A stretch of DNA of 38,322 bases from Klebsiella phage ST16-OXA48phi5.4. The DNA lies in sequence record MK416015.1; one strand, 5' to 3'. Under the pieces are notes generated by a model that made no database searches, was not told the DNA's origin, and worked only from the letters and a program-made list of their open reading frames with translations. The position numbers were made by a program, and so were the translations under genes. Numbering within the stretch: position 1 is the first letter of the stretch; every line of letters begins with the position of its first letter. Positions 17,660 to 37,931 of this stretch are shown piece by piece.

Positions 17660-17672
17660 TAATCCCCATCAC

Positions 17673-19194: not shown

Positions 19195-19394
19195 TGAAAG
19201 TCAGGGCGTTGCAAAACGACACGGTTGATCAGCTCTGCTGGCGTCATTACGGCAAAACCGCAGGTGTCACGGAGAAGGTGCTCGAAGCCAATCCGGGACT
19301 GAGCAACCAGATATTTTTGAATGCCGGGCAGGAGATCGAAATGCCCGTGATAACCAGCGAGGTGGAACGGGTAACCGTCCAGTTATGGGAATGA
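19194..19394 (+). CDS. X: tail protein gpX
   Basis: 66 aa, position, overlapping stops/starts. Confidence 0.8.
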   Translation: MKVRALQNDTVDQLCWRHYGKTAGVTEKVLEANPGLSNQIFLNAGQEIEMPVITSEVERVTVQLWE

Positions 19395-20733: not shown

Positions 20734-21201
20734 ATGCTGAAGATAAACACACTCCGCGCCGCCATAGAGAAAGCAAACACCTGGTGCCGGGCGAACCCGG
20801 AAGCCTGGACGGTGTTTGTTGAAGAGGGTGGCATTGAAACGACCGGTGAAACGCCGTCTTTCATGTACCGCTATTCTCTGGTGCTGTTCGTCATGAACTA
20901 CGCCGGGAGCATTGACGACTTCACGCTGCCACTGATGGCCTGGCTCTGGTTTAATCAGCCCGATCTGCTGCTGAACCCGGATAAAAACCAGCAGATTAAA
21001 TTCACCACGTTGATTAACAGCGATGACACCGCCGATCTTATGTTTGAGCTGCCGGTGCGTCAGCGGGTACTGGTGCAGCTGGATGAAAACGGGGTGCCGT
21101 ATGCCGTGCATTTGCCGGAGCCGCGCCCGCGCGTGCTGGCACCCCACGCCGCAGGCTGGGGGCTGGTATTTGAAGGCATGCTTCAGGAGGCCGGAGCGTG
21201 A
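20734..21201 (+). CDS. R: tail completion protein gpR
   Basis: 155 aa equal to P2 R, position. Confidence 0.85.
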   Translation: MLKINTLRAAIEKANTWCRANPEAWTVFVEEGGIETTGETPSFMYRYSLVLFVMNYAGSIDDFTLPLMAWLWFNQPDLLLNPDKNQQIKFTTLINSDDTADLMFELPVRQRVLVQLDENGVPYAVHLPEPRPRVLAPHAAGWGLVFEGMLQEAGA

Positions 21202-21833
21202 GCGATCGCATGTTCAGCGAGCTGGATCAAGTCTTTCAGGACATCCTCGACGGCGTCAGCCCGGCGGGGCGCACCCGTACCGCGCGCAAAATTGGTCTGG
21301 CACTGCGTCGCAGTCAGCAGCGCCGTATCGCGTCACAGAAAAACCCGGACGGCAGCGGCTATGCCGTGCGCCGCCGTAAGGTTTACCGCACCCAGCAGGG
21401 GATCAAGTTCTTCTGGAATAACGAGGTGCGGGCGCTGAAAAACTGGCGCGGCGGGCGCGGTAAATATGGCCGGACAATCACTGGTTTTGACGAGAAGCGC
21501 CGGGATATCCGCACCTTCTACCGGGCCGATATCGAGCGGTATCTGGAAATCAAAACGCAATCAGCTACGCATTCAGAGACAAAAAAAGCACCGATGTTTA
21601 CCCGCCTGCGCACCCTGCGTTTTATGAAGCTCAGGCCGGACGCGGGCGGCGTCACCGTAGGATTTGACGGCATCGCTGCGCGCATTGCCCGTATTCACCA
21701 GTACGGCCTCAAAGACGAGGTTGGTCCGGGCGCTTACGCGCAGTACCCGGCGCGTGAACTACTGGGCATAACTCCGGCAGACCTGAGCGCTACGGAAAAC
21801 GCCGTTATCAGCAGTCTGGGCGGTGCGTCATGA
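21198..21833 (+). CDS. S: tail completion protein gpS
   Basis: position between R and V. Confidence 0.8.
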   Translation: MSDRMFSELDQVFQDILDGVSPAGRTRTARKIGLALRRSQQRRIASQKNPDGSGYAVRRRKVYRTQQGIKFFWNNEVRALKNWRGGRGKYGRTITGFDEKRRDIRTFYRADIERYLEIKTQSATHSETKKAPMFTRLRTLRFMKLRPDAGGVTVGFDGIAARIARIHQYGLKDEVGPGAYAQYPARELLGITPADLSATENAVISSLGGAS

Positions 21834-22417
21834 ATGCTGAGCTGATGCGCCTGCTGGAAAACATTCTGCGCCTGGGCGTCGTGGAACAAATCAGCGCCGA
21901 CAAGAAAGCGGTGCGCGTTCGCTCCGGCAGGTTGCTGACCACCTGGATCCGCTGGAACGTCACCCGCGCAGGGGCATTCAGCATCTGGCTGCCGCCCTCG
22001 ATAGGGGAGCAGGTCTGGATCGGTTGTCCGGGCGGCAACCCTGAAAACGCGTTTGTGATTGGCTCTGCATACAGCGCAGATAATCCGCCAACGGGCAGCA
22101 ACCTGCTGGAAATCAGCATCACCGCACCGGATGGCGCGCGCCTGCATTACGACGCCGCCGCCGATGCCGGAGCACTGTCCGTGACCGGTATTAAAACCGC
22201 GCATATCCAGGCAGAGACCCGCGTCACGCTGGACACACCGGAGGTGGAATGCACGGAACACCTCAAAACGCGCACTTTCGAACTGACCCACGGCGGCACG
22301 ATGGCCGGTGATGTGTTCCATTCCGGCGGCGTGTTGCAGTCAAACGGGATCACCGTACATGAACATAAACACGGTGGCGTGCAGTCTGGCGGGAGTACCA
22401 CGGGAGGTCCGCAATGA
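21830..22417 (+). CDS. V: baseplate spike/assembly protein gpV
   Basis: 195 aa, position. Confidence 0.85.
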   Translation: MNAELMRLLENILRLGVVEQISADKKAVRVRSGRLLTTWIRWNVTRAGAFSIWLPPSIGEQVWIGCPGGNPENAFVIGSAYSADNPPTGSNLLEISITAPDGARLHYDAAADAGALSVTGIKTAHIQAETRVTLDTPEVECTEHLKTRTFELTHGGTMAGDVFHSGGVLQSNGITVHEHKHGGVQSGGSTTGGPQ

Positions 22418-22764
22418 CAGCCAGTTATACCGGGATGAACCCGGAGGGCACCGGCGCGCTGACCGATCACGATCAGCTCTGGCAGTCCGTGACAAAAATC
22501 CTCACCACGCCAACAGGCTCCCGTGTGATGCGCCGGGACTTTGGCTGTGTGGTACCTGATTTACTCGATGCGCCACAGAACACCGTCACCCGCATGCAAC
22601 TGATGGGCGCCACCGCTATTGCGCTGGCGCAGTGGGAGCCGCGGATCAGTCTGACCACCGTCAATGTGGTGTTTTCAGAAACAGGCGCGGTGACTGCTGA
22701 ACTGACCGGCACTATCACGGAAACCATGACAGAAACCAGTAACACCATCAGGCTAAGGAGCTAG
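22414..22764 (+). CDS. W: baseplate wedge protein gpW (gp25-like)
   Basis: 116 aa, position. Confidence 0.85.
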   Translation: MTASYTGMNPEGTGALTDHDQLWQSVTKILTTPTGSRVMRRDFGCVVPDLLDAPQNTVTRMQLMGATAIALAQWEPRISLTTVNVVFSETGAVTAELTGTITETMTETSNTIRLRS

Positions 22765-22765
22765 T

Positions 22766-23689
22766 GTGCAAACGTCCGTCGATTTATCTCAGATCCCACA
22801 GCCTGATATCGTCGAGGTGCCCGATTTTGAAACGGTGCTGGCTGATATCCGGGCGCTTATCGTGGCGGCCATGCCTGTGGAACTTCAGGCTTCTGTGTCT
22901 GCTGCGCTGCTGCTGGAATCTGAACCGATGGCGGCACTGGCCCAAGCCTTCACCTATCGCGAGATCCATCTGCTGCAACGTATCAATGAAGCCGTGCGCG
23001 CGGTGCTGCTTTCGAGCGCCTTGGGGGCGGATCTCGATCAGATCGCCGGGAATTTTGACACTGAACGCCTGCTGATTACCGAAGCCACCGACGAGGCGGA
23101 CGCAGTATATGAAAGCGACGAAGAGCTGCGCGGCCGCACGCTGCTCTCATGGGCTCGCCTTAGCACGGCGGGCGCCAGAAATGCCTATCACTATTTTGCG
23201 CGAGGTGCGGATGCGGATGTGCTCGATGTGCGCGCCTATGGCCCTGAAACCCATAACCAGGAAGGACGCGTTTTTCTCTACGTGCTGTCACGTACCGGAG
23301 ATGGGACTGCCCCGCAGGCGCTGCTTGATAAAGTCCTGTCAGCGGTAAACCCGGAAGATGTGCGTCCGATTACGGATTATGTGGCTGATTATGTCCGCTC
23401 CGCTGTGATTGTGAATTATCAGGTGGTTGCTGACATTTACGTCCCTTACGGCGTGGACACCGCCACGGTGCTGGAAAAAGCCACCGCAGCACTGAACGAA
23501 TACACCGCCTCTGTGCATCTCATCAACGCCACAGCTGCACGGTCGGGCATAGACGGGGCGCTGCATCAGGACGGCGTTGTTACCGTCGATTTGCATTCAC
23601 CGGCCGCCGACGTCGTTGCGACGATGGGCGAAGCGCCTCATTGCACCTCTGTGAAAATCAATCTTGTGGTGATGGACTATGACCGCTAA
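22766..23689 (+). CDS. J: baseplate wedge protein gpJ (GTG start after AGGAG)
   Basis: 307 aa, position. Confidence 0.85.
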   Translation: MQTSVDLSQIPQPDIVEVPDFETVLADIRALIVAAMPVELQASVSAALLLESEPMAALAQAFTYREIHLLQRINEAVRAVLLSSALGADLDQIAGNFDTERLLITEATDEADAVYESDEELRGRTLLSWARLSTAGARNAYHYFARGADADVLDVRAYGPETHNQEGRVFLYVLSRTGDGTAPQALLDKVLSAVNPEDVRPITDYVADYVRSAVIVNYQVVADIYVPYGVDTATVLEKATAALNEYTASVHLINATAARSGIDGALHQDGVVTVDLHSPAADVVATMGEAPHCTSVKINLVVMDYDR

Positions 23690-26600
23690 TTATCCCGCCA
23701 GCATTCTGCCACCCAACGCCACCGCCGTGGAGCGGGCCATAGACAGGGCCAGCGCCGCCGCACTGGAGAGGTTGCCGGTATATCTGATCCGTTGGGTTAA
23801 AGATCCGGACAGTTGCCCGCTGGCGCTGCTGCCGTGGCTGGCGTGGGAATATCAGGTTGATACCTGGAATATTAACTGGTCAGAACAAAAGAAACGCGAT
23901 GCGATCAAGCGCGCCCACTACATCCACCGCCATCGTGGTACAGTCGCCGCCGTCCGTCATGCCCTGGTGGACAGTCCTTTCGGGACGGATATTGTTGAAT
24001 GGTTCAATCAGAACCCGAAAGGGGATCCGTATACCTTTCGCCTGAATGTGTATCAGAACGATTTGCCGGTGACGGAATACGACCAGCAGGATCTAAAACT
24101 GGCGGTGCTGCGCGCCAGGAATCTGCGCAGCTGGTTTTCCGTTCATGTATTTGGCCGACTTCATGGAACCTCGTATGCGGCCGGTTACATGTACGCCACG
24201 GAGAAAATCACGCCGCGCTTTGTCCCGTTGCAGGTGGTTTTATCCCGCTACGAGCTGAATCTGGCCCCCGGGGACGCGGAAACGGTCACGGTGACAATTC
24301 TCCCCGAATACGCGGAAGATAAAACCTTTACGGTAACTACATCGGATCAAACAATCGCGACCGCCCGGATAGTAAACGGCGATATTCTGGTTACGGGCAT
24401 GAAGCGAGGTACCTGTTCGGTCACCGTTACGACGACTAATGGCGTCAGTGCGGTGATCAGCATAAAAGTGGTCGCGGTAATGAAGTTCATTACCCGCATC
24501 GACAGTGCAACCAGGCCAATATTCTTTGCTCATATGGACGAGGGTTTCACGGTTGACTATGGCGACGGCATTGACAGCCGGGACTACCGTTTCGATCCCG
24601 CCAGTGAAGCTTCAGGTTGGGTTATTCCTACACGTGAATTAGTACAGGGAAAGGAATACACCATCACGGTTAAGAACACGGAAACCGCCTGTCTGCGCAG
24701 CCGTTTATCTAACTATTCTTCGAAACTGAACCCTGTTGTGGAATTGATTAGTGTTACAGGGGAAAGAGGTCATCTTTCAGGGTTCGCTTTGGATACCACC
24801 GGATTAATGGCTATTCGTCCCGGAGCATTTGACGATTTGCCAAACGTGAATAACTGCAAAAATATTTTTACCAACTGCTCGTCGCTTGCAGGTATTCCGG
24901 CATCGTTGTTTTCTCGCATGAAGATAGAGGATTTTTCAGACGCATTCAGAGGGTGTACATCGCTTACTGAGGTTCCATCGGGGCTATTTGCAAACCAGCC
25001 TGATGCGATCGACTTCTCATCGGTATTTGCAGGCTGCACCGGCCTGATCAGTATCGGCAATAATCTGTTCCACAGCTGTGTATCTGCGGTGAATTTCAGT
25101 TACGCGTTTGATGGTTGCTCAATGCTTGCAAATATCGGCACGGGAATATTTACAGGATGCGGTTCAGCAGGGACATTCTCTTATAGCTTCAGGGCGTGTA
25201 AAAATCTTCTTGTCTTGCCTGCTGATATGTTTGCGGATGTTCCGGGCGGCGCATTCACCGGCGTATTCCAGAATTGCATGGCACTGACGGCAATTCCCGC
25301 CAACCTGTTTAAAACATGTTCTGAAGCGAATCATTTTGGCGGTGCATTCTCTGGCTGTTCGCAGCTTCTTTCTGTTCCTGCCGGTCTGTTTGCAGGTCTG
25401 TCGAAAGTCACCTATTTCGGGACAGTCTTTTCTGGTTGCAGTTCGCTGAAAACGGTCGGCGCGGGTTTATTTGCCGGGTGCAGCCAGGCGCAGACATTCG
25501 CCTCTGCATTTTACAGCTGCCGCTCTCTTGAAACTGTAGCGAAAGATATTTTCAGCGGCTGCGTAGAGGTGACGACCTTTGCCAGTACGTTTTATGGGTG
25601 CAGCAGCCTGACGGCGCTCCCGTCTTTTACTGACTGCGCGAAAGTCACCACTTTCTCATACGCTTTTGCTAACTGTGGATCGCTCACGAAAATTGATGCA
25701 GATGCTTTTGCTGTTAAAGCGCTGGTCACGACATTCACATACGCTTTTGTAAACTGTACTTCGCTGGTTTCTGTGGAGGACGGTGCATTTCGGGGATGTA
25801 GCGCGTTAACCAGCTTGGGCTATACGTTTTCAGGTTGCCGCTCTCTGGTTTCTCTCGCGGGAGATATGTTTGCCGGTTGCGCCAAAGTGACAGCCGTCGA
25901 TTTCTTATTCGACAAGTGCTCCGCGCTGGTTGAACTGCCAAAAGAGCTATTCAGCGACATGGTGTCCTTGAAAGGCATGGGATCGACTTTCCGGGATTGT
26001 ACTGCACTCATCTCGCTACCATCCGGCCTGCTTGATGGTTGCATCAATCTCACTTCGTTAACGCTGACATTCTCGGGCTGCACCTCACTGGCGTTATTGC
26101 CTGGCGATTTGCTGAAAAACAACATTCTTCTGTCCGGCGCCGGATCGACGTTTTACGGTTGCACCTCACTGGTAAATATTCCGCCGACGCTGTTCGCGTC
26201 CTGCTCTCTTATTACCTCGTTTGGCGCCACGTTCCAGAATACCGGCGTGGAGGAAATACCGGAAAACCTGTTCAGCGGCAACCCGCTGGTGACCTCTTAC
26301 GGCCAGACTTTCAGGGGCTGTAAAAACCTGCGCTCAGTGCCAGCCGGTCTTTTTGCCGCCAGCATAAGTGCCACGGTATTCACGAATGTCTTTTCGGAAT
26401 GCAGTGCGCTGGAAGTCGTCGGGGCGGGATTACTCAACACCACGGCGGTAACGACGGTGGGTTATCTGTTTGACGGCTGCGCGTCATTACACAGCGACGT
26501 TAACACGATATTTAATCTTGCGAGTTACCCGGAGATTGTCACCACAACGGCAATATTCAGGAGCTGCGTATTACTCGCCGGCAAAGGCCTGGTATTTATG

Positions 26601-26705
26601 GGCAAAGTGCCGAACGTCACCGCGCACTATTACGCGTTTTATGCCTGTGCGGGCCTGGACGATTACGACGATTTACCCGGCAACTGGATAACGAACAAAC
26701 TATGA
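23679..26705 (+). CDS. I: baseplate protein gpI fused in-frame to a bacterial Ig-like (BIG2-type) domain and ~24 BspA-type leucine-rich repeats (1008 aa)
   Basis: first ~180 aa match P2 gpI (CP.ALLPWLAWEY.VD.W...KR.AI..A..IHRH.GT); residues ~195-265 Ig-like; residues ~395-950 tandem ~23-aa F..C..L..IP..LF..... repeats. Confidence 0.8.
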   Translation: MTANYPASILPPNATAVERAIDRASAAALERLPVYLIRWVKDPDSCPLALLPWLAWEYQVDTWNINWSEQKKRDAIKRAHYIHRHRGTVAAVRHALVDSPFGTDIVEWFNQNPKGDPYTFRLNVYQNDLPVTEYDQQDLKLAVLRARNLRSWFSVHVFGRLHGTSYAAGYMYATEKITPRFVPLQVVLSRYELNLAPGDAETVTVTILPEYAEDKTFTVTTSDQTIATARIVNGDILVTGMKRGTCSVTVTTTNGVSAVISIKVVAVMKFITRIDSATRPIFFAHMDEGFTVDYGDGIDSRDYRFDPASEASGWVIPTRELVQGKEYTITVKNTETACLRSRLSNYSSKLNPVVELISVTGERGHLSGFALDTTGLMAIRPGAFDDLPNVNNCKNIFTNCSSLAGIPASLFSRMKIEDFSDAFRGCTSLTEVPSGLFANQPDAIDFSSVFAGCTGLISIGNNLFHSCVSAVNFSYAFDGCSMLANIGTGIFTGCGSAGTFSYSFRACKNLLVLPADMFADVPGGAFTGVFQNCMALTAIPANLFKTCSEANHFGGAFSGCSQLLSVPAGLFAGLSKVTYFGTVFSGCSSLKTVGAGLFAGCSQAQTFASAFYSCRSLETVAKDIFSGCVEVTTFASTFYGCSSLTALPSFTDCAKVTTFSYAFANCGSLTKIDADAFAVKALVTTFTYAFVNCTSLVSVEDGAFRGCSALTSLGYTFSGCRSLVSLAGDMFAGCAKVTAVDFLFDKCSALVELPKELFSDMVSLKGMGSTFRDCTALISLPSGLLDGCINLTSLTLTFSGCTSLALLPGDLLKNNILLSGAGSTFYGCTSLVNIPPTLFASCSLITSFGATFQNTGVEEIPENLFSGNPLVTSYGQTFRGCKNLRSVPAGLFAASISATVFTNVFSECSALEVVGAGLLNTTAVTTVGYLFDGCASLHSDVNTIFNLASYPEIVTTTAIFRSCVLLAGKGLVFMGKVPNVTAHYYAFYACAGLDDYDDLPGNWITNKL

Positions 26706-26914
26706 AAACATTCAATCAATTAAAAAGCCTGATCGACTTTTGTCAGACCGATGCGTTTTTCCTGGAACACCTGAACCGACTTCAGATCGCTGGCGTGATT
26801 TATCTTGATGAAGGCGATATCGATGCTGACCACAAGACCGTGAGTGATGATTTTTATGATCGACTTGCCAGCGTGTACGGCATTGAGCCAGAAATAAAAA
26901 GTGAGGAGGCATAA
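26702..26914 (+). CDS. small acidic protein (70 aa), translationally coupled between gpI-LRR and gpH
   Basis: ATGA overlap with upstream stop and TAATG overlap with H start. Confidence 0.55.
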   Translation: MKTFNQLKSLIDFCQTDAFFLEHLNRLQIAGVIYLDEGDIDADHKTVSDDFYDRLASVYGIEPEIKSEEA

Positions 26915-28011
26915 TGGCCACGGGACTGACACTAACCACGGCGGGCGCCGCCGAAATCGAGGCCGCGTATCAGGCGGGGGAGGTTGTGCATATTACCTCC
27001 GTGCTGATCGGCGATGGTGGCGGCGTGACATTGCCGGCTGATCCCGATGAGCTGGCGGCGGTGACGGCGCTTTTTGGACAGTTTGGCCGTGAAACCTTTG
27101 ACTCTGATTCAAGCTATGAGGGGTTTATCAGCGGGCAGATCGTTATCAACTGCCAGGATTATCCGGGTAAAACGCTCAGAGAAGCGGGGCTGGTCAGCGC
27201 TAAGGGTACGCTCATCGCTTACGGCACATACCCGGCGACATACCTCCCGGCGCAATCGGATTCCATTATTAAAGAGATCATGCTGACGCTGGTGTTGACG
27301 CTGACGCACAGCTCAAACGTGCAGCTTGTTATCGATCCGGCGCTTGCCACACTCACGCAGGAAACAGGTGATAAACGCTATCTGCGGCGAGCACAAAATC
27401 TTTCTGATTTAAACGATCCCAAAGAGGCCAGGGATAATCTTGAACTGGGTAACTCAGCTACGCGGGACGTGGGCACCGAGACGGGAATGGTAGCTGCGGG
27501 GGATGACTCGCGCATAACCGGCGCACTTCAGAAAGAAAATAATCTTTCCGATCTGAGCGATACATCCGAAGCCCTGAAGGCGCTGGGACTCAACAGCGAC
27601 GGAGCGGCTTATAGGGCTATTGTTGACGCTATTTTTTACGTTGGGATCATCATTTCAGGTGAAAAAAGCCCAGCAGAGCGTTTCCCTTGGCAGACGTGGA
27701 CGGATTTAAGCGAAACCTTTGCTGATAGGGTTGTCAGGATTGGTTCTCAGTATGGTGTGACCGGCGGCAGCAACAAGGTGAAGCTTGAAGCCGATAATTT
27801 GCCTCCACACTGGCACCGTTCTGGTGATAGGTCTCCGGGAGCAACTTGGGATCCCAGTGCCACTCACGGAACAGATAACCAGAAAAGTGGTCCGCTAGCG
27901 CTCACTGAAGGAACCTACATCGATGCGGCAGGTCTGAAGGCGTCCGTAAACAAGGATTTTGATGTGACTAACGAATATACAACGTTGTGTATGTGGAAGC
28001 GAAAGGCATAA
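26914..28011 (+). CDS. H: tail fibre protein gpH (short form, 365 aa) with C-terminal tail-collar-like domain
   Basis: N-terminus TTAGAA...ITSVLIGDGGG matches conserved P2 gpH N-terminal domain; C-terminal LPPHWH ... TLCMWKRKA resembles tail-collar domain motif. Confidence 0.82.
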   Translation: MATGLTLTTAGAAEIEAAYQAGEVVHITSVLIGDGGGVTLPADPDELAAVTALFGQFGRETFDSDSSYEGFISGQIVINCQDYPGKTLREAGLVSAKGTLIAYGTYPATYLPAQSDSIIKEIMLTLVLTLTHSSNVQLVIDPALATLTQETGDKRYLRRAQNLSDLNDPKEARDNLELGNSATRDVGTETGMVAAGDDSRITGALQKENNLSDLSDTSEALKALGLNSDGAAYRAIVDAIFYVGIIISGEKSPAERFPWQTWTDLSETFADRVVRIGSQYGVTGGSNKVKLEADNLPPHWHRSGDRSPGATWDPSATHGTDNQKSGPLALTEGTYIDAAGLKASVNKDFDVTNEYTTLCMWKRKA

Positions 28012-28503
28012 AAAATGTGTGTTTGTTCAGAGTTGCTCCTTCATAAAATAAGAAATGAGTAGTGGTGGATATGAAAATCTAATAGCCTGTAAAGCGTATC
28101 CTCAATTATCCGTAGATGAACAATTATTCTTAAGGTGGCCTCGCTGGCTTTGATGCTGTGGTCAAAAGAACATAGATTGATGCTGAAGTTTGTTAAATGT
28201 GGAGAAGCTCACACGGCGTTTTTTAATCAATTTATTTAAACGCACAGATCTGGTGAAATACAGTTTTTAAGTTATGAAATGGCTTGATTTAAATTTTGAT
28301 AAATGAGTTCTTTCTGATTGGGTTTAATAATCATTGATTAAATTAATAAGCATTTCAACAGTAATGGCTGAAGTCTCAAAAATGGATTTCCAAGATTTTT
28401 GTGAAAGGAAGGTTTAGATGCTTACATTGTCATTTTAAACCTGAGTGGTTTCTAAATATTAAGGTGGGTTAAAGCATTTTAATGAATTTTAGATGTATTA
28501 AGA

Positions 28504-28544
28504 GGGAGGTGAATTAAAAGATGCTGTTTATACATATATTTTGA
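28504..28544 (+). other. 7-codon mini-ORF (MLFIHIF) with strong SD GGGAGGTG, upstream of the DUF262 gene
   Basis: read directly; possible leader peptide, speculative. Confidence 0.2.
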
Positions 28545-28558
28545 AATGGATTTTTTTG

Positions 28559-28598
28559 TTGTTGTATGGTATCATGTACTGTAGTATGACATAATTTC
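28559..28598 (+). promoter_or_regulatory. candidate sigma70 promoter for DUF262 cassette (TTGTTG ... TAGTAT / CATAAT)
   Basis: hexamer-like elements 20-50 bp upstream of ATG 28611 in AT-rich leader. Confidence 0.3.
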
Positions 28599-28610
28599 AG
28601 AGGAATTAAA

Positions 28611-29834
28611 ATGGAAGAAAAACATTCGTTAGAAGAAAATGCCATAGCTGTTTCTGAAAGTGACGATCTCGAGATTATCGAGTCTAATCAAGATATAATA
28701 AGTGATGATCCTGTTACAAAGGAAGACATTGAAAATCTTGTAATTTATTCGCGGGATTGGACTATTGAAACAATAATTAGCCAAATAGAATCTGGGAATA
28801 TTGATCTCAACCCTGCTTTTCAAAGGAGAAATGTCTGGGAAAATGATAAGCGTTCTAAGCTAATTGAGTCATTTATTGTAGGGTATCCTGTTCCAGAAGT
28901 TGTTTTGGCTGAAATACCAGGTAAAAAGAAACAATATGTTGTTATTGATGGTAAGCAACGCCTTCTTGCCATTCATGGTTTTTTTAAACCTGAAAATAAA
29001 TATTGGAAAGGTAAGGCTGAGTTAAAAGGATTAACAATTCGTAAAGATTTGGAAGGTGTTTCATTTGATAGATTAGATGGAGATGACCTTAGGCTGTTGA
29101 ATAACTCAGATCTAAGATGCACCATTCTATCAGGATATCAAACAACAGCTGTACTTTACGATGTATTTTATCGTTTAAATACTGGTTCTGTACCTTTGTC
29201 GATGCAAGAACTAAGAAATTCATTACATAAAGGAGATTTTTCTGTTTTCATAACTGAGAAGACTAACTCTGAAATCCCACTGCATGCTATTATGTCATTG
29301 CCAGGTCCAGATAAAAGATTTAAAGATATTGAAGTAATGCTTAAGTTTTTAGCCCTTAACTTTAATAAAGACAAGTATAATGGTAATTTAAAAGTTTTCC
29401 TAGACGGGTTTACAGAATATGCTAATCAATCTTGGTCTTCTAACAATAAACTTATAACCAATGCTTGTGATGAGTTTGATCAGGCGTGTTTATTATTGAT
29501 TGATATTTTTAACACTCCAAAACTAGTCGGTAGAAAATGGGTTCCTATCAAAGATAATTGGGAGTCGAGATTTAATCGATCTGTTTTCGAAGTTTTAGTT
29601 CAGTACGCATTTAATATAATCAAAGATGGCAATTCTGCATTATTTTCCGGTGATAATGAAAAAAATGATTTTATAGAGTGTATAAAACAAGCATTCACAG
29701 GGCAAGAATTTGCAGCCTCTGTATCGACTACGACAAAAACAGTTGAACAACATTCGATAAGATTTAATGTTTTATTTGGCATTTTAAATAGCAAATTTGG
29801 TTTGCATTATACTCTACCTCAGACAATTCAATAA
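28611..29834 (+). CDS. DUF262-domain protein (ParB/Srx-like NTPase domain as in GmrS/SspE/BrxU type IV restriction modules), 407 aa; cargo in P2 Z/fun hotspot
   Basis: signature NPAFQRRNVW ... VVIDGKQRLLAI (DUF262 FQR..W and DGQQR motifs); ~33% GC. Confidence 0.75.
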   Translation: MEEKHSLEENAIAVSESDDLEIIESNQDIISDDPVTKEDIENLVIYSRDWTIETIISQIESGNIDLNPAFQRRNVWENDKRSKLIESFIVGYPVPEVVLAEIPGKKKQYVVIDGKQRLLAIHGFFKPENKYWKGKAELKGLTIRKDLEGVSFDRLDGDDLRLLNNSDLRCTILSGYQTTAVLYDVFYRLNTGSVPLSMQELRNSLHKGDFSVFITEKTNSEIPLHAIMSLPGPDKRFKDIEVMLKFLALNFNKDKYNGNLKVFLDGFTEYANQSWSSNNKLITNACDEFDQACLLLIDIFNTPKLVGRKWVPIKDNWESRFNRSVFEVLVQYAFNIIKDGNSALFSGDNEKNDFIECIKQAFTGQEFAASVSTTTKTVEQHSIRFNVLFGILNSKFGLHYTLPQTIQ

Positions 29835-29851
29835 TAAAATGAGAGGGCGAA

Positions 29852-30514
29852 ATGGACTATTCAGTTGATATAATGAAAGCCTTCGATACTCTGGTTAGAG
29901 TAAATACGAATCTTTACAATAGATATATATTACCACATATAGGCGTTGTAGACTCAACTGATGAGGTGTTTTCCTTAGACGTTAAATCATATTTAATATT
30001 GTTGCATGCAGCCATTGAGGACTACATAGAAGGAATCAGTGTCTTCACTAGTAATGCAGCTTGCGAGCTATTCAAAAATGAAGGCAAAATAACCTTGCCA
30101 CTTATGTTTTTGTTTGCAAAAAGTAAATCATTCAAAGACAGAGTATCCGATAAAAAATTATCAGAAGAATTACATGACTCTCCGCGAGATTTTATGGTTA
30201 GTTCGTTGGGGGATATTAACGCAAATGCAGTTGCAGGTGCGATTGATAATAATGGAATAAATGTCAGGTATCTCAATAATCTTTTGCAACATTGTGGCAT
30301 TAATTTTGATGTGTCTGAAAATGATTTTATTAGTTGGAAAAGTTTAGCTGACTATAGAGGTGATTATGCTCATGCAGTGGTATTTAATCATGGCAAAAAG
30401 CCTAAGGCGACAAAGCTTATATCACCAGAGGATGCTAGAGATCTAGGTAATGATTGCATCAGATTTTCGGAAAAGATAAGAGATGAAGCATTAAGTAGTT
30501 TAGGTTTAAATTAG
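29852..30514 (+). CDS. 220-aa partner protein with HEPN-like Rx4H motif (YRGDYAHAV) near C-terminus
   Basis: follows DUF262 gene by 17 bp, same strand, same low GC; R-x4-H motif; assignment is inference. Confidence 0.6.
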   Translation: MDYSVDIMKAFDTLVRVNTNLYNRYILPHIGVVDSTDEVFSLDVKSYLILLHAAIEDYIEGISVFTSNAACELFKNEGKITLPLMFLFAKSKSFKDRVSDKKLSEELHDSPRDFMVSSLGDINANAVAGAIDNNGINVRYLNNLLQHCGINFDVSENDFISWKSLADYRGDYAHAVVFNHGKKPKATKLISPEDARDLGNDCIRFSEKIRDEALSSLGLN

Positions 30515-30523
30515 AGGCTTATA

Positions 30524-30552
30524 AGGCGAAAGAATTAGTTTCGCCTTTTTTC
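30524..30552 (+). terminator. rho-independent terminator after cargo cassette (AAGGCGAAA-loop-TTTCGCCTT + T5)
   Basis: 9-bp perfect stem followed by TTTTTT. Confidence 0.75.
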
Positions 30553-30977
30553 ATTCTTTCAGTGTAATAGTGGTGAAATATATATTTTAAAATGTTTGGT
30601 TTTTTTAACAACCAGCTTACTCTTGCTATTCGTGGTCGCTACCAATTTGGCAGAGTTCTTCGAAGTAAATATATAGACTATGCATGATTTGTCTTTTGGT
30701 TGCTGGATATATCTCACTTCATTTGTAAGTTTTTTTTGCTAACCTTAATTATGGGGTGGTGTGATTTTTGTTGACCGATGTGTAAAAATGTTTGTGTTTT
30801 TAGAAGCTGTGGTAATTGTAAGTATTCAGTGTTTGCAGATTATTGGATTCTATCTATTTGGAGTGGGAATAATCTCTATGGTCAGGTCTGAGCTTATGTG
30901 AAATACGTTCAGTAATGACTGTTTTTGTCTATGTCTAGTACCATAATAATTATTTTCTGCATTGAATATGAGGTCAC

Positions 30978-31451
30978 CTAGCGTATTTTAGTTACATCTG
31001 ATACCGTTTTGGCTCCATCCTTCAGTATTGCCATCATGTCGCTGACGGAAGAACTATGCAACCTCTCCCTGATATCCTCATCAACCCGCTGCAACGAGAG
31101 TGTGAACTCTATTTTTTTAGCTTTACCGTAACGATCCAACTCCTGATGCGTCTCCTGTAAACCCGTGATGACATACATCCCGTAAATCGAGCCAACCCCA
31201 TCAATCAACGGCCAGGCAAGCCCGGTGTAAGCCATTGTCGAGACCGCACCCAAAGACAGGTTGTCTCCAGTGATTTCAGGGTACAGCAGCCCACCCAACG
31301 TCAACTGGTTCTCGCCGGCGCCAACGTACTGCCATTTTGCGCTCCGGCCCACCCGGTCATTCTTAACGTGCCGCCAGTTACGTGACAGCTGCAATTGCTG
31401 ATAGGGCAGCGTCCTGAGTTCAAATACAAAGAGACCGAATACCATCATCAT
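30978..31451 (-). CDS. U: tail protein gpU
   Basis: MMMVFGLFVF...WQYVGAGENQLTLGGLLYPEITG matches P2 gpU. Confidence 0.9.
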   Translation of the reverse strand: MMMVFGLFVFELRTLPYQQLQLSRNWRHVKNDRVGRSAKWQYVGAGENQLTLGGLLYPEITGDNLSLGAVSTMAYTGLAWPLIDGVGSIYGMYVITGLQETHQELDRYGKAKKIEFTLSLQRVDEDIRERLHSSSVSDMMAILKDGAKTVSDVTKIR

Positions 31452-31466
31452 AGTTATTACTCCTAA

Positions 31467-34442
31467 TTAATCGTTATCCCGGAACGAACCCCGGGCAGCG
31501 CGTTGCTTTTTATCAATTTCCGCGCGGACAGCCTCGCCAACAAGTCGCGCCAGTTCGCGCGGATTGTTGCTCTGAATGCCGTGCAGATGGACGTGAATAT
31601 CACCGGGAAAACTACCACCTGAAGCTGTAGCCGCCGTGTGGGTGCTTTGATTTCGGCGTACCGGTTGCCATGCCTGCGTCTGTTTTATCGATGGCTCGCC
31701 AGCGGCAATAACCGGGCGAGCGCTGACAGACTGGCGGACAAGCTTCGACTCCTGCCATTCACCACGTACTGCAAGGGCTGGAGGGAGATTTTTAAATACA
31801 ATGTCACCCGGCCCGATACGTTTGCGTTTTTCCTCATCTAAAAGGCCTTTGGTGTTATCCGCGATTTGGCCCAGCCGCCGCTCTGTTCCAGAGTTGCCCC
31901 CGAGCACATTGGGCGGCGGGGCGCTGCCTTTGCTTGCAGGCTTTTCAGATGACCATTGCCACTCCCTTTTAACCATGCGCCCGGATTTTTCATCCCATTC
32001 CCACATAACCGGAATAGCCCTGAGTCTGGCCGCTTCCAACCTGGCTCTTTCAATGCCATCGGGGATGAGATCGAGCTTCTCCAGTAACCAGCCGACGCCT
32101 TCCATTAACTTCTGAAGCGGCCAAAGCAGAACGCTAAGTGCGGTCCCCAGGACTTCGCCAAAAGTCTGCCCGGCGCTGGCGCATTTGTTTAGCGCCTCGC
32201 GACTCTCCTCAACGGGCGTTAATACTTTTTTAAACCAGTTCCAGACGTTTTTGACGCCATCCCCAATGACCCCGAAAACGGGCGCCAGCCGGGAAAATGC
32301 GTTATAAACTGGCGCTAACCCCTGGATGACGCCTGTAAAAAAACCGCTAAAGAAGGCCTTAATTGGTCCCCAGTATTTCCAGATCAGTACTCCCGCAGCT
32401 ACAAACGCAGCACCCACTAAACCGATTGGGCTCAAGAGCATTGATAATCCGCCGCCCAGTGCAGCAATACCGCCTTTTACAATGCCGAAGAGAGCAGGGA
32501 TCCCGGTTAGCCGCAATGCCAGCCCGCCAATGCTTTTTGACAGGGCGCTGATAGCAGTCCCCAGAGAGGTAAAGGCACCAAGTAACGCACCGCGCAGGGG
32601 TACCATCATTCTGGTTAATACGCCGATGCGTCCTGCCAGGCCGCTGAGTAAAGCACGCCATCCGCTAATTTTTACCAGTGAGCTACCGCCCGCAGCACTC
32701 AACATGCGGAACGCTGATACCGTACCTCCGATTCCGCTCCCGCCGGACAGCAGCGCAAACCCCAGTCTGAGCTTCGCCAGCGGACCTATCAGCAGACCAG
32801 CAGCTAATGACATACCGCCAATTACTGCGGTCAGTGCCAGTACAGTCCCGCCGGCGAGTAACAACGTTTGTGAAAGTCTGGGGTTTTCTTCTACCCAGCT
32901 TTGAACAGTGCCAATAACCCGGCTAAGCCCCTGTGTCAGTCTGCGCAATGGGCCGTCCACTGTCTCAGCTACAGAAATGCGGAACGCCTCCCACGCGCTG
33001 TCCAGCTCCTTCAAATCGCCGCCAAGGTTGTCTTTTTTCTTGTTAGCGACGGCGAAGGCCTCCTGATTTTTATGCGCTTCAGCAATTTGTCCATAGAGTG
33101 ACTGGAGGTAGCCATCACCTGCGCCGTTGACCAAAGACTGGAGACTCGTAAAACCCTCTTCTCCGGCGATATCTTTGAAAAATGAAACCTGATCCACCTC
33201 GCCAAAGCGGGAAACGCGTTTTTGTAGATCGAGAAGAATATCGAACGGACGTCGCATTTTTCCGCTCGCGTCGGCAGTTTCCACTCCCAGCTCTTTGAGT
33301 GCCTTTTTGGCTGCCGTAGTAGGGGAGGCCAGGCGGGAGAGGGAGCGACGCATTGCAGTACCGGCCTCGCTACCGCGAATACCCACGCGCGCCAGCGTGC
33401 CGGTCATCGCTGCGGCTTCTTCCAGGCTAATCCCTAGTCCCGCGGCTACCGGTCCGACAACTTTCATTGTCTCGCCGAGGCTGCTAAGCGTGGTGTTGGT
33501 ACGGGTAAATGTACCTGTCAGCACATCGCTGACGCGGTCCATTTCCCCGGCATCGAGGGCGAACTGTGAAAGAATATTTGAGCCGATGTCTGCCGTTTCA
33601 CCCAATTCCATACTGCCCGCTAGTGCCATATTGAGTACGCCGGGCAGTGCGGCACGGATAGCATCTGGCGTGAAGCCCGCCATTGCCAGAAAGGCCTGGC
33701 CGCTGGCGGCGTGACGTGTGGTGAAGGCGGTTTCAGCACCGAGTTTTTTTGCCTGAGTGCGCAAGGCGGCCAGCTGCGAATCGCTTTTATCGAGTCGCGT
33801 CAGCGCCTGGACGTTTGACATTTCCTCATCAAAACCAACCGCAGGCGACAGGAAGCGTCCGGCGCCATACCCGGTAGCGGTTGCTGTACCTAATGCTATG
33901 GCACCACCAGAGCGCAACTTCCCGGCCATCTGCTGTGCACCCTCGTAACGTTTACGAGCTTGAGTGACCGCAGCAAGTTGCCGTTTTTCCCGTTCAAGGG
34001 ATTGGTTGTATTGTTCTGTGCGGCGTATCGCGTTACCGATGGTGGCGCTACTACCGGAAAGCATGACGCCATGCTGGCGCAGGGCTGATGCACTCTCACG
34101 GAGGCGGGCCACTTCCGTCACGCGTTTTGCGGTCAACCGATCAAGCCGCTCACCCAATCGGGACATCAGTATTTGCTGTTTTTCCGTCAGAGTTCCGTTT
34201 TTACGTTGCGCTTCTGACAAGCCATCAAAGCGGGCACGGGCACGTGAGATGGAACGGTCGGTTTTGCCGACGGCCGCGGTCATTCGCTGAAAAGTGGCAC
34301 TGCTCTTATCGAGTCCTTTCAGGGTGGATTGTGTTTTTCTGAGGGAGTCGGATAGGCCGCCCGCACTCTGGCGGGCAGCATTAACGGGGCGGGTAAATCT
34401 GTTGATCGCGCTGAAAGCAACGCGGATATCAAGGCTCTTCAT
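31467..34442 (-). CDS. T: tail tape-measure protein gpT (ATG at 34442; ORF track alternative GTG 34454)
   Basis: ~990 aa, Ala/Gly-rich helical, position between E' and U. Confidence 0.88.
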   Translation of the reverse strand: MKSLDIRVAFSAINRFTRPVNAARQSAGGLSDSLRKTQSTLKGLDKSSATFQRMTAAVGKTDRSISRARARFDGLSEAQRKNGTLTEKQQILMSRLGERLDRLTAKRVTEVARLRESASALRQHGVMLSGSSATIGNAIRRTEQYNQSLEREKRQLAAVTQARKRYEGAQQMAGKLRSGGAIALGTATATGYGAGRFLSPAVGFDEEMSNVQALTRLDKSDSQLAALRTQAKKLGAETAFTTRHAASGQAFLAMAGFTPDAIRAALPGVLNMALAGSMELGETADIGSNILSQFALDAGEMDRVSDVLTGTFTRTNTTLSSLGETMKVVGPVAAGLGISLEEAAAMTGTLARVGIRGSEAGTAMRRSLSRLASPTTAAKKALKELGVETADASGKMRRPFDILLDLQKRVSRFGEVDQVSFFKDIAGEEGFTSLQSLVNGAGDGYLQSLYGQIAEAHKNQEAFAVANKKKDNLGGDLKELDSAWEAFRISVAETVDGPLRRLTQGLSRVIGTVQSWVEENPRLSQTLLLAGGTVLALTAVIGGMSLAAGLLIGPLAKLRLGFALLSGGSGIGGTVSAFRMLSAAGGSSLVKISGWRALLSGLAGRIGVLTRMMVPLRGALLGAFTSLGTAISALSKSIGGLALRLTGIPALFGIVKGGIAALGGGLSMLLSPIGLVGAAFVAAGVLIWKYWGPIKAFFSGFFTGVIQGLAPVYNAFSRLAPVFGVIGDGVKNVWNWFKKVLTPVEESREALNKCASAGQTFGEVLGTALSVLLWPLQKLMEGVGWLLEKLDLIPDGIERARLEAARLRAIPVMWEWDEKSGRMVKREWQWSSEKPASKGSAPPPNVLGGNSGTERRLGQIADNTKGLLDEEKRKRIGPGDIVFKNLPPALAVRGEWQESKLVRQSVSARPVIAAGEPSIKQTQAWQPVRRNQSTHTAATASGGSFPGDIHVHLHGIQSNNPRELARLVGEAVRAEIDKKQRAARGSFRDND

Positions 34443-34904
34443 CACTGGCACCACTTCGAAGCGCCGCCCGCTTGCGCCAGGCTATCACCTCGCCAAGATC
34501 CATGCCGAAAACTTCAGAGGGCGGCCAGTTAAAAATAACGGCAATATCAGCAACCAGATCGTCTATCTGGTCAAACGCAACGGTGATTACTCGCTCTCCG
34601 TCTCCGCCACGTTCGACGCTCCAGGCTCCGGCGGATTCAAGAAAGGGACCAGAAGCTCTGCCAGCCCGATAAAGTCCAGGGTGTGCATTTCGTTGATTTC
34701 TTTTTGTGTCAGCGCAGGCGCGGTGACTCGCGTCAACAGCGTGGCAATTGAGTCTGCATCCATATTGGCAACGCGGATAAGATTCAGGCCGCGCAACGAT
34801 CCGGCCTGACTGATGGCGCCAGTGATTTCCACCTGACCGATCTCACTGTCTTTACGAACTACCGGCTGCATCAGCGTGAACAGGTTTTTAGTTTTTTTAG
34901 CCAT
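34429..34904 (-). CDS. E: tail assembly chaperones gpE (34587-34904) and gpE+E' produced by -1 frameshift at slippery heptamer C CCT TTC (minus-strand, 34641-34647); E' ends 34429 overlapping T start
   Basis: canonical X XXY YYZ heptamer in E frame; -1 frame stays open ~72 codons and terminates just inside T start, as in P2 E/E'. Confidence 0.7.
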
Positions 34905-34949
34905 GTTTAAAATCTCCGGGCGGCATCGTTGCCACCCTCTTAAAGGTTA

Positions 34950-35465
34950 TCAATTGCCCATGCCAAGGGCAGAGGTGATGCGGTCCGGGAACATGTTCTG
35001 ACCGTTCTTTTTGTAGATGAAATTCAGCAGATCGATTTCGATAATGGGCTGATCATCTATGGAGAATTTGTAGTAGGTGGATTTAAAGGTGTAGCTTTCC
35101 TCGGTGTCTTCTCCCTGTTTTGAATCTCCACCGTCGAGTTCAGTAAATCGCCCGCGCAGCTCCACCTCGACAAGCTGGCTTTCGCCATCAGTGAAATATT
35201 CACCCGCAAAGCGCAGCCGCGTGCCGTCAATTTCTGCTCCGTATTCGAGAAACAGAGCCTTAATGACGCCGCCAAAAACAATGGTGGAATCCAGCGCGCC
35301 AGCCTCAAGGCCGAGATCAACACCGACCGCACCCAGCATGCCACCGCCCTGATAGTCCTCTACCTTTCGTGACAGTTTGGGGCGAGTGAAAGAGGTCACT
35401 TTTCCCAGATAGTTGTCGCCGTTAACAAAGCAGCTAAAAAGCCGCAGTTTGTGAGGAATAGCCAT
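34950..35465 (-). CDS. FII: tail tube protein gpFII
   Basis: 171 aa equal to P2 FII, position. Confidence 0.9.
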   Translation of the reverse strand: MAIPHKLRLFSCFVNGDNYLGKVTSFTRPKLSRKVEDYQGGGMLGAVGVDLGLEAGALDSTIVFGGVIKALFLEYGAEIDGTRLRFAGEYFTDGESQLVEVELRGRFTELDGGDSKQGEDTEESYTFKSTYYKFSIDDQPIIEIDLLNFIYKKNGQNMFPDRITSALGMGN

Positions 35466-36637
35466 TATTCACCCCCGAGCGACGCGAACGCCGGTTCGTA
35501 AAAATCATCAGTAAAGGTCTGGTATAGCGTCAGATCTTCAAGCGGTGGGACCGGGCTGTAGCTATAGCGCACAATCAGTTTTCCCTGGCGCAAATCCGTG
35601 GTGCCGTTATCCAGCGTGTCATACCAGCAGTCAGCGCCGATAAGCTGGCCGGCAGTGACTTTTTTGCTGAGAGCAGAGCGGATGCCGCTTACCACATCTT
35701 TCACGTTGGCCGGAGTGAGCGGGCTGTCAACAGAGGTAAATTGCGCCTCCGCAATACTGTCCGCCAGGATCTGCGCGGTACGGGTAAACACCTCAAAAGT
35801 GTAGGTTTCGGTGTCCGTGGTGCGGTTACCCCAGAAGCGGAAACCGTCACGCTTGATAAGCGTCGTGATTTCGTTGTTGTTCAGCTCGTTAGCGTCGCTG
35901 TCTTCTGCCTGCAATGCCCAGAACACATCTTTCGAAATACCCAGAACGTTATTCACCACAACATTCGACAGCGATTTGTGCCAGCCCTGGCTGTTATCGA
36001 TAGCGGCGCGCAGGCCGCAGGCGTAAGCCGGGGCAGGAAACGTTTCGTTATCATCCGTCAGGGGGTTGTAAGCGATGAAGTCCGGCCAGATCAGCATCAG
36101 CTCGCGGTAAGCGAAGGTTTTGCGATAAGCAATAGCCTCCGCCATGGTCGCGCAGCCGTTACAACCGGCATAAACAAAAGCCCGAAGATTCTGGGCAATC
36201 ACGCAAAGCTGTGACGTTACCTCCTCGGTGTCGTAGTCCGGTACCGCCAGGATGCGCGGACGATAGCCGGTTTTGGCTTCCGCCGTCAGCAGGGCATACA
36301 TTCCCGTATAGCTGTCGCCATCTGTTCCGCCAATAACGGCCTGGGACTGGCTGGCACCGTTACCGGAAGCCTCTTTCACCCGGACAATTACAACGCGCGA
36401 GCTGCACTGATCGGAAATGGCTTTGAGAGCTTTGTAAAGTGACCCGGTTTTACCTGCCTTGCCGAGGACGTTACGCACCCGAGTCAGCAGAACCGGCGTA
36501 TTGAGCGGGAAGGTTTCCGGATCGGCGTCATCAGCAACCGCGACAATACCGATCACGCTGGAATCAATGTCATTGATTGCCTGCTGTAGGTCGGTATTTT
36601 CGCGAGAGCGGACGCCGTGAAAACGAGTTTCAGACAT
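35465..36637 (-). CDS. FI: tail sheath protein gpFI (ATG 36637, MSETRFHGV...; ORF track extends spuriously to 36946)
   Basis: multiple conserved blocks matching P2 FI (RELM.IWPDF, GWHK.LSNV, RDGFRFWGNRT, VPPLE.LT). Confidence 0.92.
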   Translation of the reverse strand: MSETRFHGVRSRENTDLQQAINDIDSSVIGIVAVADDADPETFPLNTPVLLTRVRNVLGKAGKTGSLYKALKAISDQCSSRVVIVRVKEASGNGASQSQAVIGGTDGDSYTGMYALLTAEAKTGYRPRILAVPDYDTEEVTSQLCVIAQNLRAFVYAGCNGCATMAEAIAYRKTFAYRELMLIWPDFIAYNPLTDDNETFPAPAYACGLRAAIDNSQGWHKSLSNVVVNNVLGISKDVFWALQAEDSDANELNNNEITTLIKRDGFRFWGNRTTDTETYTFEVFTRTAQILADSIAEAQFTSVDSPLTPANVKDVVSGIRSALSKKVTAGQLIGADCWYDTLDNGTTDLRQGKLIVRYSYSPVPPLEDLTLYQTFTDDFYEPAFASLGGE

Positions 36638-36713
36638 AAGTTCACCATCATGTTGCTCTTTGAGTTCAGGGCCATATTCAACGTTAAGTCTGCTGGCGTC
36701 GCCTGGTTGCCGG

Positions 36714-36738
36714 TCTGCCCGTTCGCTGACAACAAAAA
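36714..36738 (+). promoter_or_regulatory. second Ogr-type late promoter site TCT-N12-ACA + ACAAAAA in FI/D divergent region
   Basis: TCTGCCCGTTCGCTGACAACAAAAA, 19/24 identical to site at 15682. Confidence 0.55.
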
Positions 36739-36791
36739 GGGATTCAGCCCCGCGCGCGGGCATGGAATCATCAGCAAAAAACGGGGGAGTT

Positions 36792-37931
36792 ATGTCGATA
36801 GCAGACACGCTAACAACAGCAGCCGAAGGGTATTTAGAAAAATTAAGTGAGGTCGTAAAGACACCGGATTTTAGTATCACGTTGGGTGGGGTCGCCCTGA
36901 CTGAACTGGCCGACCGCATCACCTCGCTATCTGTTACAGATAACAACGGTTTTGATGCTGATCAGCTAACTTTGTCAGTAGATGACTCCGACGGAGTAAC
37001 GGATTTACCCCCACGCGGTGCGGAGCTGGCGGTGTCCATCGGCTGGCTGGGTGAGGCGTTGATCTACAAAGGTCTCTACACCGTTGACGAGGTGGGGCAT
37101 AGCGGGCCGCCGGATGTAATCGACATCACCGCGCACAGCGCTGATTTTCGCGAAGAGATGAACGTCAGGCGGGAGGTGTCCTGGCATGATGTGACGGTAG
37201 AGCGGGTGGTATCGGCCATAGCCCGGCGTTATGACCTGAAGCCGATGATTAGCGAGGCCCTGATCGACATTGAGATCGACCATGCGGATCAGACCGAAGA
37301 GAGCGACATGTCGTTTTTAACGCGCATGGCGGAGATGTTGGGGGCCATTGCCACCGTGAAAAATGGCTGTCTGCTGTTTATCCTGCCTGGGGGCGGCGTC
37401 AGTGCATCCGGTAGGGCGCTGCCATCGGCTGAGATAACCCGTGCCAGCGGAGATCGTCACAGGTTCCGCATTGCCGATCGTGATGCTTACACTGGTGTGC
37501 GGGCGTACTGGCTGGATCTTAATTTCGGCAAGAAAAAACCGGTCAAGGTCACTAAGCGCAAAACAAATACTGCCAGAAAAAAGGCTGAGGAGAAAAGCAG
37601 CCGGCCGGAGGGGGATTACTTGGAAGGCGCTGAAGGTAACGTGTATGTTTTGCGTAAAACCTATCAGAACGAAACGGCGGCCAGGCGCGCAGCTGCGGCA
37701 AAATGGATACAACTCCAGAAAGGCGCAGCACAGTTTTCGATAACCCTGGCGCGCGGCCGCGCCGATTTATACCCGGGTATGCATCTGACCGTGTCGGGCT
37801 TTAAGCCTGAAATCGATACTCAGGATTGGATCATTGCCAGAGCGGAACATGTAATCGGTGATAACGGATTTACCACGAAAATGGAGCTTGAAGCGAAAAT
37901 AAGCGACTGGATTGCAGAAACTGAACAGTAG
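36792..37931 (+). CDS. D: tail protein gpD (late control D family); ATG 36792 after GGGGAG
   Basis: 380 aa, phage_GPD-like sequence, SD; ORF track start 36660 is upstream alternative. Confidence 0.9.
   Translation: MSIADTLTTAAEGYLEKLSEVVKTPDFSITLGGVALTELADRITSLSVTDNNGFDADQLTLSVDDSDGVTDLPPRGAELAVSIGWLGEALIYKGLYTVDEVGHSGPPDVIDITAHSADFREEMNVRREVSWHDVTVERVVSAIARRYDLKPMISEALIDIEIDHADQTEESDMSFLTRMAEMLGAIATVKNGCLLFILPGGGVSASGRALPSAEITRASGDRHRFRIADRDAYTGVRAYWLDLNFGKKKPVKVTKRKTNTARKKAEEKSSRPEGDYLEGAEGNVYVLRKTYQNETAARRAAAAKWIQLQKGAAQFSITLARGRADLYPGMHLTVSGFKPEIDTQDWIIARAEHVIGDNGFTTKMELEAKISDWIAETEQ

Follow-up and report, generated by a model that had tools for sequence, protein, structure and literature searches.

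A putative two-gene anti-phage cassette of the PD-T4-2 type (DUF262 and HEPN) in the fibre/tail slot of a Klebsiella P2-like prophage

Organization of the DUF262-HEPN locus

The record MK416015.1 (Klebsiella phage ST16-OXA48phi5.4) was analysed as a stretch of 38,322 nucleotides (nt), hereafter called the window, and all coordinates given here are positions in this window. In an earlier note, it was suggested that two adjacent genes of an AT-rich island form a split module, in which a DUF262 sensor has a HEPN effector in place of the HNH nuclease. We have followed up this suggestion for these two genes, named here A and B, and we consider it probable (roughly 0.72) that they constitute a two-gene anti-phage cassette of the PD-T4-2 type and form exchangeable cargo of a Klebsiella P2-like prophage. 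The island and its genes present the following features.

28012-31005: variable cargo island in the Z/fun-equivalent slot of the P2-like fibre/tail hotspot, delimited by homology breaks and base composition
28012-28610, plus strand: AT-rich non-coding leader, 599 nt
28541-28570, plus strand: weak candidate sigma-70 promoter, TTGAAA-18-TATGGT, from a consensus scan
28611-29834, plus strand: gene A, encoding a 407-amino-acid (aa) DUF262 (ParB/Srx-fold) protein with a helical C-terminal domain and without HNH/DUF1524
28764-29228, plus strand: DUF262 domain (Pfam envelope) with the QRR..W (FQRRNVW) and DGKQR motifs
29841-29847, plus strand: Shine-Dalgarno sequence GAGAGGG for gene B, in the spacer between the genes, 4 nt 5' of the ATG (read from the sequence)
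29852-30514, plus strand: gene B, encoding a 220-aa RiboL-PSP-type HEPN protein, a putative ribonuclease (RNase) effector
30356-30373, plus strand: HEPN R-x4-H motif, R169-G-D-Y-A-H174
30523-30557, plus strand: intrinsic terminator with a 9-bp stem, a 7-nt loop and a T-run, the hairpin being 30523-30547

The two genes are co-oriented and separated by a spacer of 17 nt, and the terminator hairpin begins 9 nt past the stop codon of gene B. The guanine-cytosine (GC) content is 0.32-0.36 across 28001-31000 (about 33% for the 3-kb island) and 0.50-0.58 in the flanks. The two open reading frames (ORFs) and their gap, the AT-rich island, its leader of about 600 nt and the terminator, all of which had been read in the earlier note, were confirmed. 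No ORF of at least 60 aa was found in the leader. Promoter-like sites are not more numerous than in shuffled sequence (12 found versus 14.7 expected), so the TTGAAA-18-TATGGT site is a candidate only. A search of Rfam with 27900-31100 returned only sub-threshold chance matches, and neither an RNA antitoxin nor a riboswitch is evident in this interval. Megablast of the island against complete E. coli genomes and phage records gave no match.

Protein A is a DUF262 protein without a DUF1524 nuclease domain

Protein A contains a DUF262 domain (Pfam GmrSD_N/DUF262, PF03235; E = 3e-23, residues 52-206), and neither DUF1524 nor any other significant match was found in it by the Pfam search. This agrees with the earlier reading of its first gene as one with DUF262 motifs but no DUF1524/HNH half. 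Among 50 homologues of protein A, the residues Q71, R72, R73 and W76 and the stretch D113-G-K-Q-R117 are invariant. In the AlphaFold2 model (predicted local distance difference test, pLDDT, 88.2), the N-terminal domain is mixed alpha/beta and the C-terminal half is made of helices, except for one short predicted β-hairpin. Profile searches of the PDB found no solved structure for the family of protein A or for that of protein B. Protein A has the N-terminal DUF262 nucleoside triphosphatase (NTPase) domain in common with the type IV restriction or PT-sensing enzymes GmrSD, BrxU and SspE. It does not carry their C-terminal DUF1524 His-Me finger nuclease, and its partner, a HEPN protein, is encoded separately.

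We also compared protein A with the PADLOC models. It scores 206.8 bits on NsnA of the Menshen system (1.5e-61), its residues 17-393 being aligned with positions 18-380 of a profile of 385, and 117.6 bits on PD-T4-2_A (E = 1.6e-34), over profile positions 9-278 of 363.

Protein B is a HEPN protein with a conserved R-x4-H motif

Protein B matches the Pfam family HEPN_RiboL-PSP (PF18735) with 31.0 bits, for a gathering cut-off of 28.4. By an exhaustive HMMER search we obtained a family of 159 representative clusters, mostly of 200-260 aa and with full-length matches. Among 145 family representatives, R169 and H174 are conserved at 99%, E56 and E60 at 100%, and H52, N133 and G135 at 96-99%; the R169-x4-H174 motif is invariant in alignments that include distant HEPN partners of DUF262 proteins. 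The structural model is all-helical (pLDDT 85.9, predicted template modelling score 0.84), in keeping with the all-alpha HEPN fold. With these results, the HEPN assignment of protein B, R-x4-H motif included, which had been made in the earlier note, is well supported. Searches of PADLOC, NCBIfam and PHROGs with protein B gave no useful match, and tblastn against phages gave none.

Foldseek of the model against the PDB returned no significant match. The best structural matches of protein B are HepT/HEPN toxins of HEPN-MNT pairs (5yep_B, 7ae2_A and 8xdj_A). Such matches, together with a tight two-gene operon found on mobile elements, would suit a toxin-antitoxin or addiction module, in which the HEPN protein is the toxin, the DUF262 protein neutralises it and the main role is stabilisation of the prophage, not phage sensing. 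Unlike in HEPN-MNT (HepT/MntA) pairs, however, the partner of protein B is not an MNT nucleotidyltransferase: it is a ParB-like DUF262 protein, and Pfam found no nucleotidyltransferase domain. The large gene also comes first and is conserved as that of a protein with NTPase motifs, and protein B exceeds HepT by about 80 residues. We regard such a module as unlikely, and further evidence that bears on it is given below with the cargo slot.

A and B form a strictly paired and widespread family

In Pantoea, Agrobacterium, Sphingobium, Kosakonia and Morganella, a PF18735 gene comes next after homologues of protein A with 46-72% identity, and these pairs lie in unrelated, non-prophage contexts, chromosomal or in islands. 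We then considered one genome per species, a scan that gave 80 loci, 76 of them with sufficient downstream DNA. The loci span Pseudomonadota, Bacteroidota, Actinomycetota and several further major groups. A HEPN ORF lies directly 3' of the DUF262 gene in all 76 loci, in one of them (L019) as a 105-aa fragment only; the automatic rule had counted the partner at 67, and the other nine were added after correction of over-extended starts or split ORFs. In IMG/VR, the partner is present at 12 of the 12 loci in which protein A reaches at least 300 bits on the family profile and there is room downstream. The IMG/VR DUF262 proteins that score below 200 bits on this profile are without the partner.

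In addition, the pairwise identities of A and B correlate with r = 0.88 across 70 pairs (Mantel test, 0 of 999 permutations). The mean identity is 24% for B, below the 39% observed for A, so B evolves faster. A and B are a conserved, strictly paired and co-diverging unit. The members of the family share a DUF262 protein of about 380-410 aa, with the motifs QRRN[AV]W, DGKQR and YD[IV]FYRLN, and a HEPN protein of about 205-260 aa, and they occur in many bacterial phyla. Judged by its profile scores and alignments, the window's pair belongs to a distinct, deep-branching and very widespread family, whose size, phylogenetic breadth and strict pairing make it a useful data set on the communication between DUF262 sensors and HEPN effectors.

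The pair of Kosakonia sp. MUSA4 (L009:549-4528) is located in a small defence island beside guaA. Its neighbours encode a DUF4062-SIR2_2 protein, a TPR protein and a ParE/Phd toxin-antitoxin pair.

Comparison with PD-T4-2 and related systems

PD-T4-2 was described by Vassallo et al. (2022) as 'DUF262, HEPN', with HHpred matches to PF03235 for its protein A and to PF18735 (97.8%) for its protein B. It defends ECOR65 and K-12 against T4, and its deletion from ECOR65 restores plaquing of T4. In the same study a PD-T4-2B H127A plasmid was built, and four mutated systems were reported to lose protection, the residues being essential. An operon of this kind ('Ribo L-PSP-HEPN ... operon with ParB') had already been catalogued by Anantharaman et al. 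(2013), and PD-T4-2 is grouped among DUF262-centred systems in reviews and in the Menshen study. The view of the earlier note that the pairing has no name is therefore not upheld: in its architecture, the pair corresponds to a system already described. It is still true, from the profile and pairwise comparisons reported below, that the window's sequence family is clearly separate from authentic PD-T4-2.

We recovered the authentic PD-T4-2 locus by means of the published lambda-Red primer arm. An exact match to this 50-nt primer is present in 17 of 5,426 complete E. coli genomes, and in E. coli 2009C-3133 (NZ_CP013025.1, L091:5968-7603) both primer arms and both cloning primers match exactly. 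H127 of PD-T4-2B is the His of PRNAAAH, which contains the R-x4-H motif RNAAAH, and the locus belongs to a P4-like satellite, where it is flanked by psu and by an integrase beside ssrA. As a positive control, authentic PD-T4-2A scores 538.2 bits on the PADLOC PD-T4-2_A model, and PD-T4-2B scores 212.7, 126.4 and 111.1 bits on the three PD-T4-2_B models.

The two systems have the same design. Each consists of two adjacent co-oriented genes, DUF262 first and HEPN second, within a hotspot carried by a mobile element of the P2/P4 type. Both A proteins have DUF262 but not DUF1524, their C-terminal halves are helical and their acidic N-termini have the EDIENL motif in common, and both B proteins are small PF18735 HEPN proteins with R-x4-H. 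The window's A and PD-T4-2A are 28% identical over 265 aa (E = 4e-23). However, the window's A reaches only 118 bits on the PD-T4-2_A model, versus 538 for the authentic protein; conversely, PD-T4-2A has 122 bits on the profile of the window's family, on which members have 520-620 bits. By these scores, the window's A is homologous to PD-T4-2A but stands outside the PD-T4-2 core family. The difference is larger for the effectors, since the window's B has 220 aa and PD-T4-2B 167 aa, with no pairwise similarity. The sites differ as well, the psu-int slot of a P4-like satellite for PD-T4-2 and the fibre/tail slot of a P2-like prophage for the window's pair.

Several observations weigh against an assignment to the PD-T4-2 type. 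Protein A scores higher on the NsnA model of Menshen than on that of PD-T4-2_A. BLASTP gave no alignment between the window's B and PD-T4-2B, none of the three PADLOC PD-T4-2_B models matched the window's B at E <= 1, and hhalign of B with PD-T4-2B aligned short stretches only, with a probability below 5% (in one run the IEDYIEG helix, against A2, and in the other the R-x4-H helix, against the 145-sequence profile). In the literature searched, we found no mechanistic study of PD-T4-2, and the defence role, the RNase activity, the trigger and the contact between A and B are, for the window's family, properties that we infer. A scan of viral contigs for relatives of PD-T4-2B, intended for profile building, found none. 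A word-indexed search with a HEPN alignment did not recover PD-T4-2B, and ten other HEPN partners submitted to PADLOC gave no PD-T4-2_B match. A literature search on RiboL-PSP with DUF262 likewise found no mechanistic study.

Taken together, these comparisons indicate that the window's pair and PD-T4-2 have the same design, with sensors that are homologous and effectors that fall in one Pfam family, and that the window's pair belongs to a separate, deep-branching family. There is a small but appreciable chance that this family of long HEPN proteins is also functionally distinct from PD-T4-2, for example with another trigger (unmodified or specifically modified DNA) or with a ParB/Srx-fold protein that is more than a simple sensor and controls the RNase through an NTP-dependent covalent or conformational switch. 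If this were true, the window's pair would represent an abundant archetype of the DUF262-HEPN class, which the models of PADLOC, the sole tool tried, do not fully match. PADLOC would not call the window's pair as a complete system; its models match gene A only, so PADLOC-based surveys may under-count the pair.

The relationship with PD-T4-2 also bears on the possibility of a type IV-restriction-like activity, in which the DUF262 protein would nick or cleave (modified) phage DNA and the HEPN protein would serve as an adaptor or regulator without catalysis of its own. In its favour, the phage on which PD-T4-2 was selected, T4, has modified DNA, DUF262 constitutes the N-terminal half of GmrSD, BrxU and SspE, and the term 'ParB nuclease' is applied by Anantharaman et al. 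to the operon partner of the related HEPN family MAE_28990. Nevertheless, the cutting domain of the GmrSD family is DUF1524/HNH, which was not found in A. In the HEPN partner, R-x4-H, E56 and E60 are 99-100% conserved, which suggests that this protein is catalytic, and the HEPN His of PD-T4-2B was among the residues mutated to test function. We thus hold DNA cleavage by protein A to be very improbable.

In the Menshen study, NsnA is a ParB-DUF262 protein with a DNA-binding part, ParBDB, proposed as a DNA sensor that feeds an RNase effector. Since protein A has NsnA as its top PADLOC match, over the full length of the model, the pair could be thought a remnant or orphan of a Menshen (NsnABC) system. 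The island (28012-31005) contains no ORF for the NsnB ABC ATPase (DUF3696), the gene after A encoding the HEPN protein, and a third gene, such as that of the NsnC inPIN-nuclease, is absent, the operon being closed by the terminator hairpin. Authentic PD-T4-2A matches the NsnA model equally well (197 bits, level with the window's A), so the match reflects a common two-domain DUF262 scaffold. With neither NsnB nor NsnC in the island and HEPN as the downstream gene in every one of the 76 loci, a Menshen fragment is effectively excluded.

Other DUF262-HEPN pairs are found in prophages, namely gp44/gp43 of Peduovirus P24B2 and URC08986/URC08987 of E. coli phage vB_EcoM-689R6. Like the window's pair, they consist of a DUF262 gene followed, in their case within about 10 nt, by a gene for an R-x4-H protein of 216-239 aa. 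The P24B2 pair is in P2 hotspot 1, and its HEPN partner is best matched by HEPN_MAE_28990 (PF18737). The A proteins of P24B2 and 689R6 have just 94 and 49 bits on the profile of the window's family.

The pair occupies a variable defence slot between the tail fibre gene and gpU

Positions 13000-28000 of the window share 96% identity with a group of Klebsiella phages of the Peduoviridae, genus Reipivirus, and the window has integrase, gpA, portal, gpD and gpU domains. From these matches, the window is a Klebsiella P2-like (Peduoviridae) prophage. The island is flanked by two genes of the tail.

26914-28011, plus strand: tail fibre gene, left flank (phrog_4618 'tail collar fiber protein', 4.8e-136; PF12571)
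30978-31451, minus strand: gpU-like tail protein, right flank (phrog_76; PF06995 Phage_P2_GpU)

The position in the Z/fun hotspot, between the tail fibre and the tail block, which was part of the earlier description, is borne out with one precision: since the tail block is inverted, the island adjoins the 3' end of gpU (stop codon at 30978) and not FI.

The alignment with Klebsiella phage Kp4848-1 (OK490400.1) ends at window position 28015 and restarts at 31006, with 92% and 97% identity in the flanks. In the fibre/gpU slot, Kp4848-1 has a different insert of 1.8 kb, which encodes a 452-aa product (L001:1724-3082) with a full-length match to PADLOC PD-T7-1 (4.3e-160, 531 bits). A third cargo allele is present in Klebsiella phage Kp4861-1 (OK490414.1), where a 510-aa HD-domain protein (L173:848-2380) is related to SAMHD1-type deoxynucleoside triphosphate (dNTP) triphosphohydrolases (phmmer to PDB, 1e-22 to 5e-32), a kind of enzyme employed in dNTP-depletion defence. 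The slot is thus known with three cargo alleles: the DUF262-HEPN pair, PD-T7-1 and the SAMHD1-like dNTPase. The final nine or so codons of gpU are inside the variable segment, and the C-termini of gpU differ between cargo alleles. These alignments identify the fibre/tail slot as a real exchange point and a variable defence hotspot.

The fun-containing slot was reported by Vassallo et al. as the second defence locus of P2. Given this known slot and the defence genes that are its other cargoes in Klebsiella, the position argues for a defence role of the pair. The same alternative cargoes speak against the toxin-antitoxin module considered above, as does the phage defence conferred by its architectural relative PD-T4-2; the two roles are moreover compatible, many toxin-antitoxin pairs acting as abortive-infection systems.

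We also looked at the frequency of this arrangement. In the index of the assembly collection, the exact Klebsiella protein B occurs in 3,282 blocks, and the order fibre-A-B-gpU was observed in 27 of the 27 contigs read with the exact protein, all from Klebsiella assemblies.

The tail block (30978-36946; sheath, tube, E, tape measure and U) is on the minus strand, in inverted order relative to P2, and is followed by a gpD-domain ORF on the plus strand (about 37000-37931).

Proposed function of the DUF262-HEPN pair

The domain content, the strict pairing of A with B and the hotspot location are observed. The architecture of the validated PD-T4-2 system, the homology of A, the strict pairing and the defence hotspot together lead to the reading of the pair as a defence cassette of the PD-T4-2 type, and the three rivals considered above (toxin-antitoxin module, DNA-cleaving protein A, Menshen remnant) are all less well supported than this reading. 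The earlier idea of a DUF262 sensor with HNH replaced by a HEPN effector is reasonable and agrees with the treatment of such systems in the literature; for its mechanism, we can only infer the following scheme.

Protein A would be the sensor. By analogy with GmrSD, BrxU and SspE, its DUF262 domain would both bind and hydrolyse NTP, and the binding of DNA would fall to its helical domain; as suggested by the full-length NsnA match, the latter may correspond to the ParBDB part of NsnA. As in the sensor role proposed for NsnA, protein A would probably recognise incoming phage DNA, possibly modified DNA as GmrSD, BrxU and SspE do. Binding or hydrolysis of NTP by A would then activate B. Protein B would act as a HEPN RNase, with an R169-x4-H174 site probably formed across a dimer, and would cut RNA (tRNA, rRNA or mRNA), so that translation and, in turn, phage production would stop. 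In this way the cassette would guard the lysogen, and hence the prophage, from other phages.

The pair introduces no new principle, since earlier descriptions exist of its architecture, of the hotspot and of the operon association. Its value is practical: it is very common in K. pneumoniae, and its HEPN partner is unmatched by the PADLOC models. With the exact protein B so frequent and every copy examined in the same slot, the pair would be a common barrier for phages, and it is probably active, a putative barrier to phage-therapy candidates against K. pneumoniae.

Other features of the window

A first AT-rich island (8320-12500, GC 0.30-0.35) occupies the position of the classical P2 old/tin hotspot, with gpA (6059-8110) on one side and the portal gene (12837-13898) on the other. 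On its minus strand are the gene of a 756-aa UvrD-like helicase (8931-11201), with weak GajB-like PADLOC matches, and an overlapping 263-aa ORF (11201-11992) that has no Pfam or PADLOC match. As PADLOC calls no named system there, the helicase and the 263-aa ORF are a candidate uncharacterised defence pair.

At 23679-26705, we observed a 1008-aa protein with an N-terminal P2 gpI baseplate domain and a Big_2 Ig-like domain. It contains a long array of faint DUF285/LRR-like repeats and is unusually big among gpI homologues; its extension may be receptor-binding. Finally, a GAF-GGDEF diguanylate cyclase gene (1-1137, minus strand), which runs off the window, adjoins the prophage integrase (1279-2313, minus strand) and probably indicates the host flank of the attachment site.

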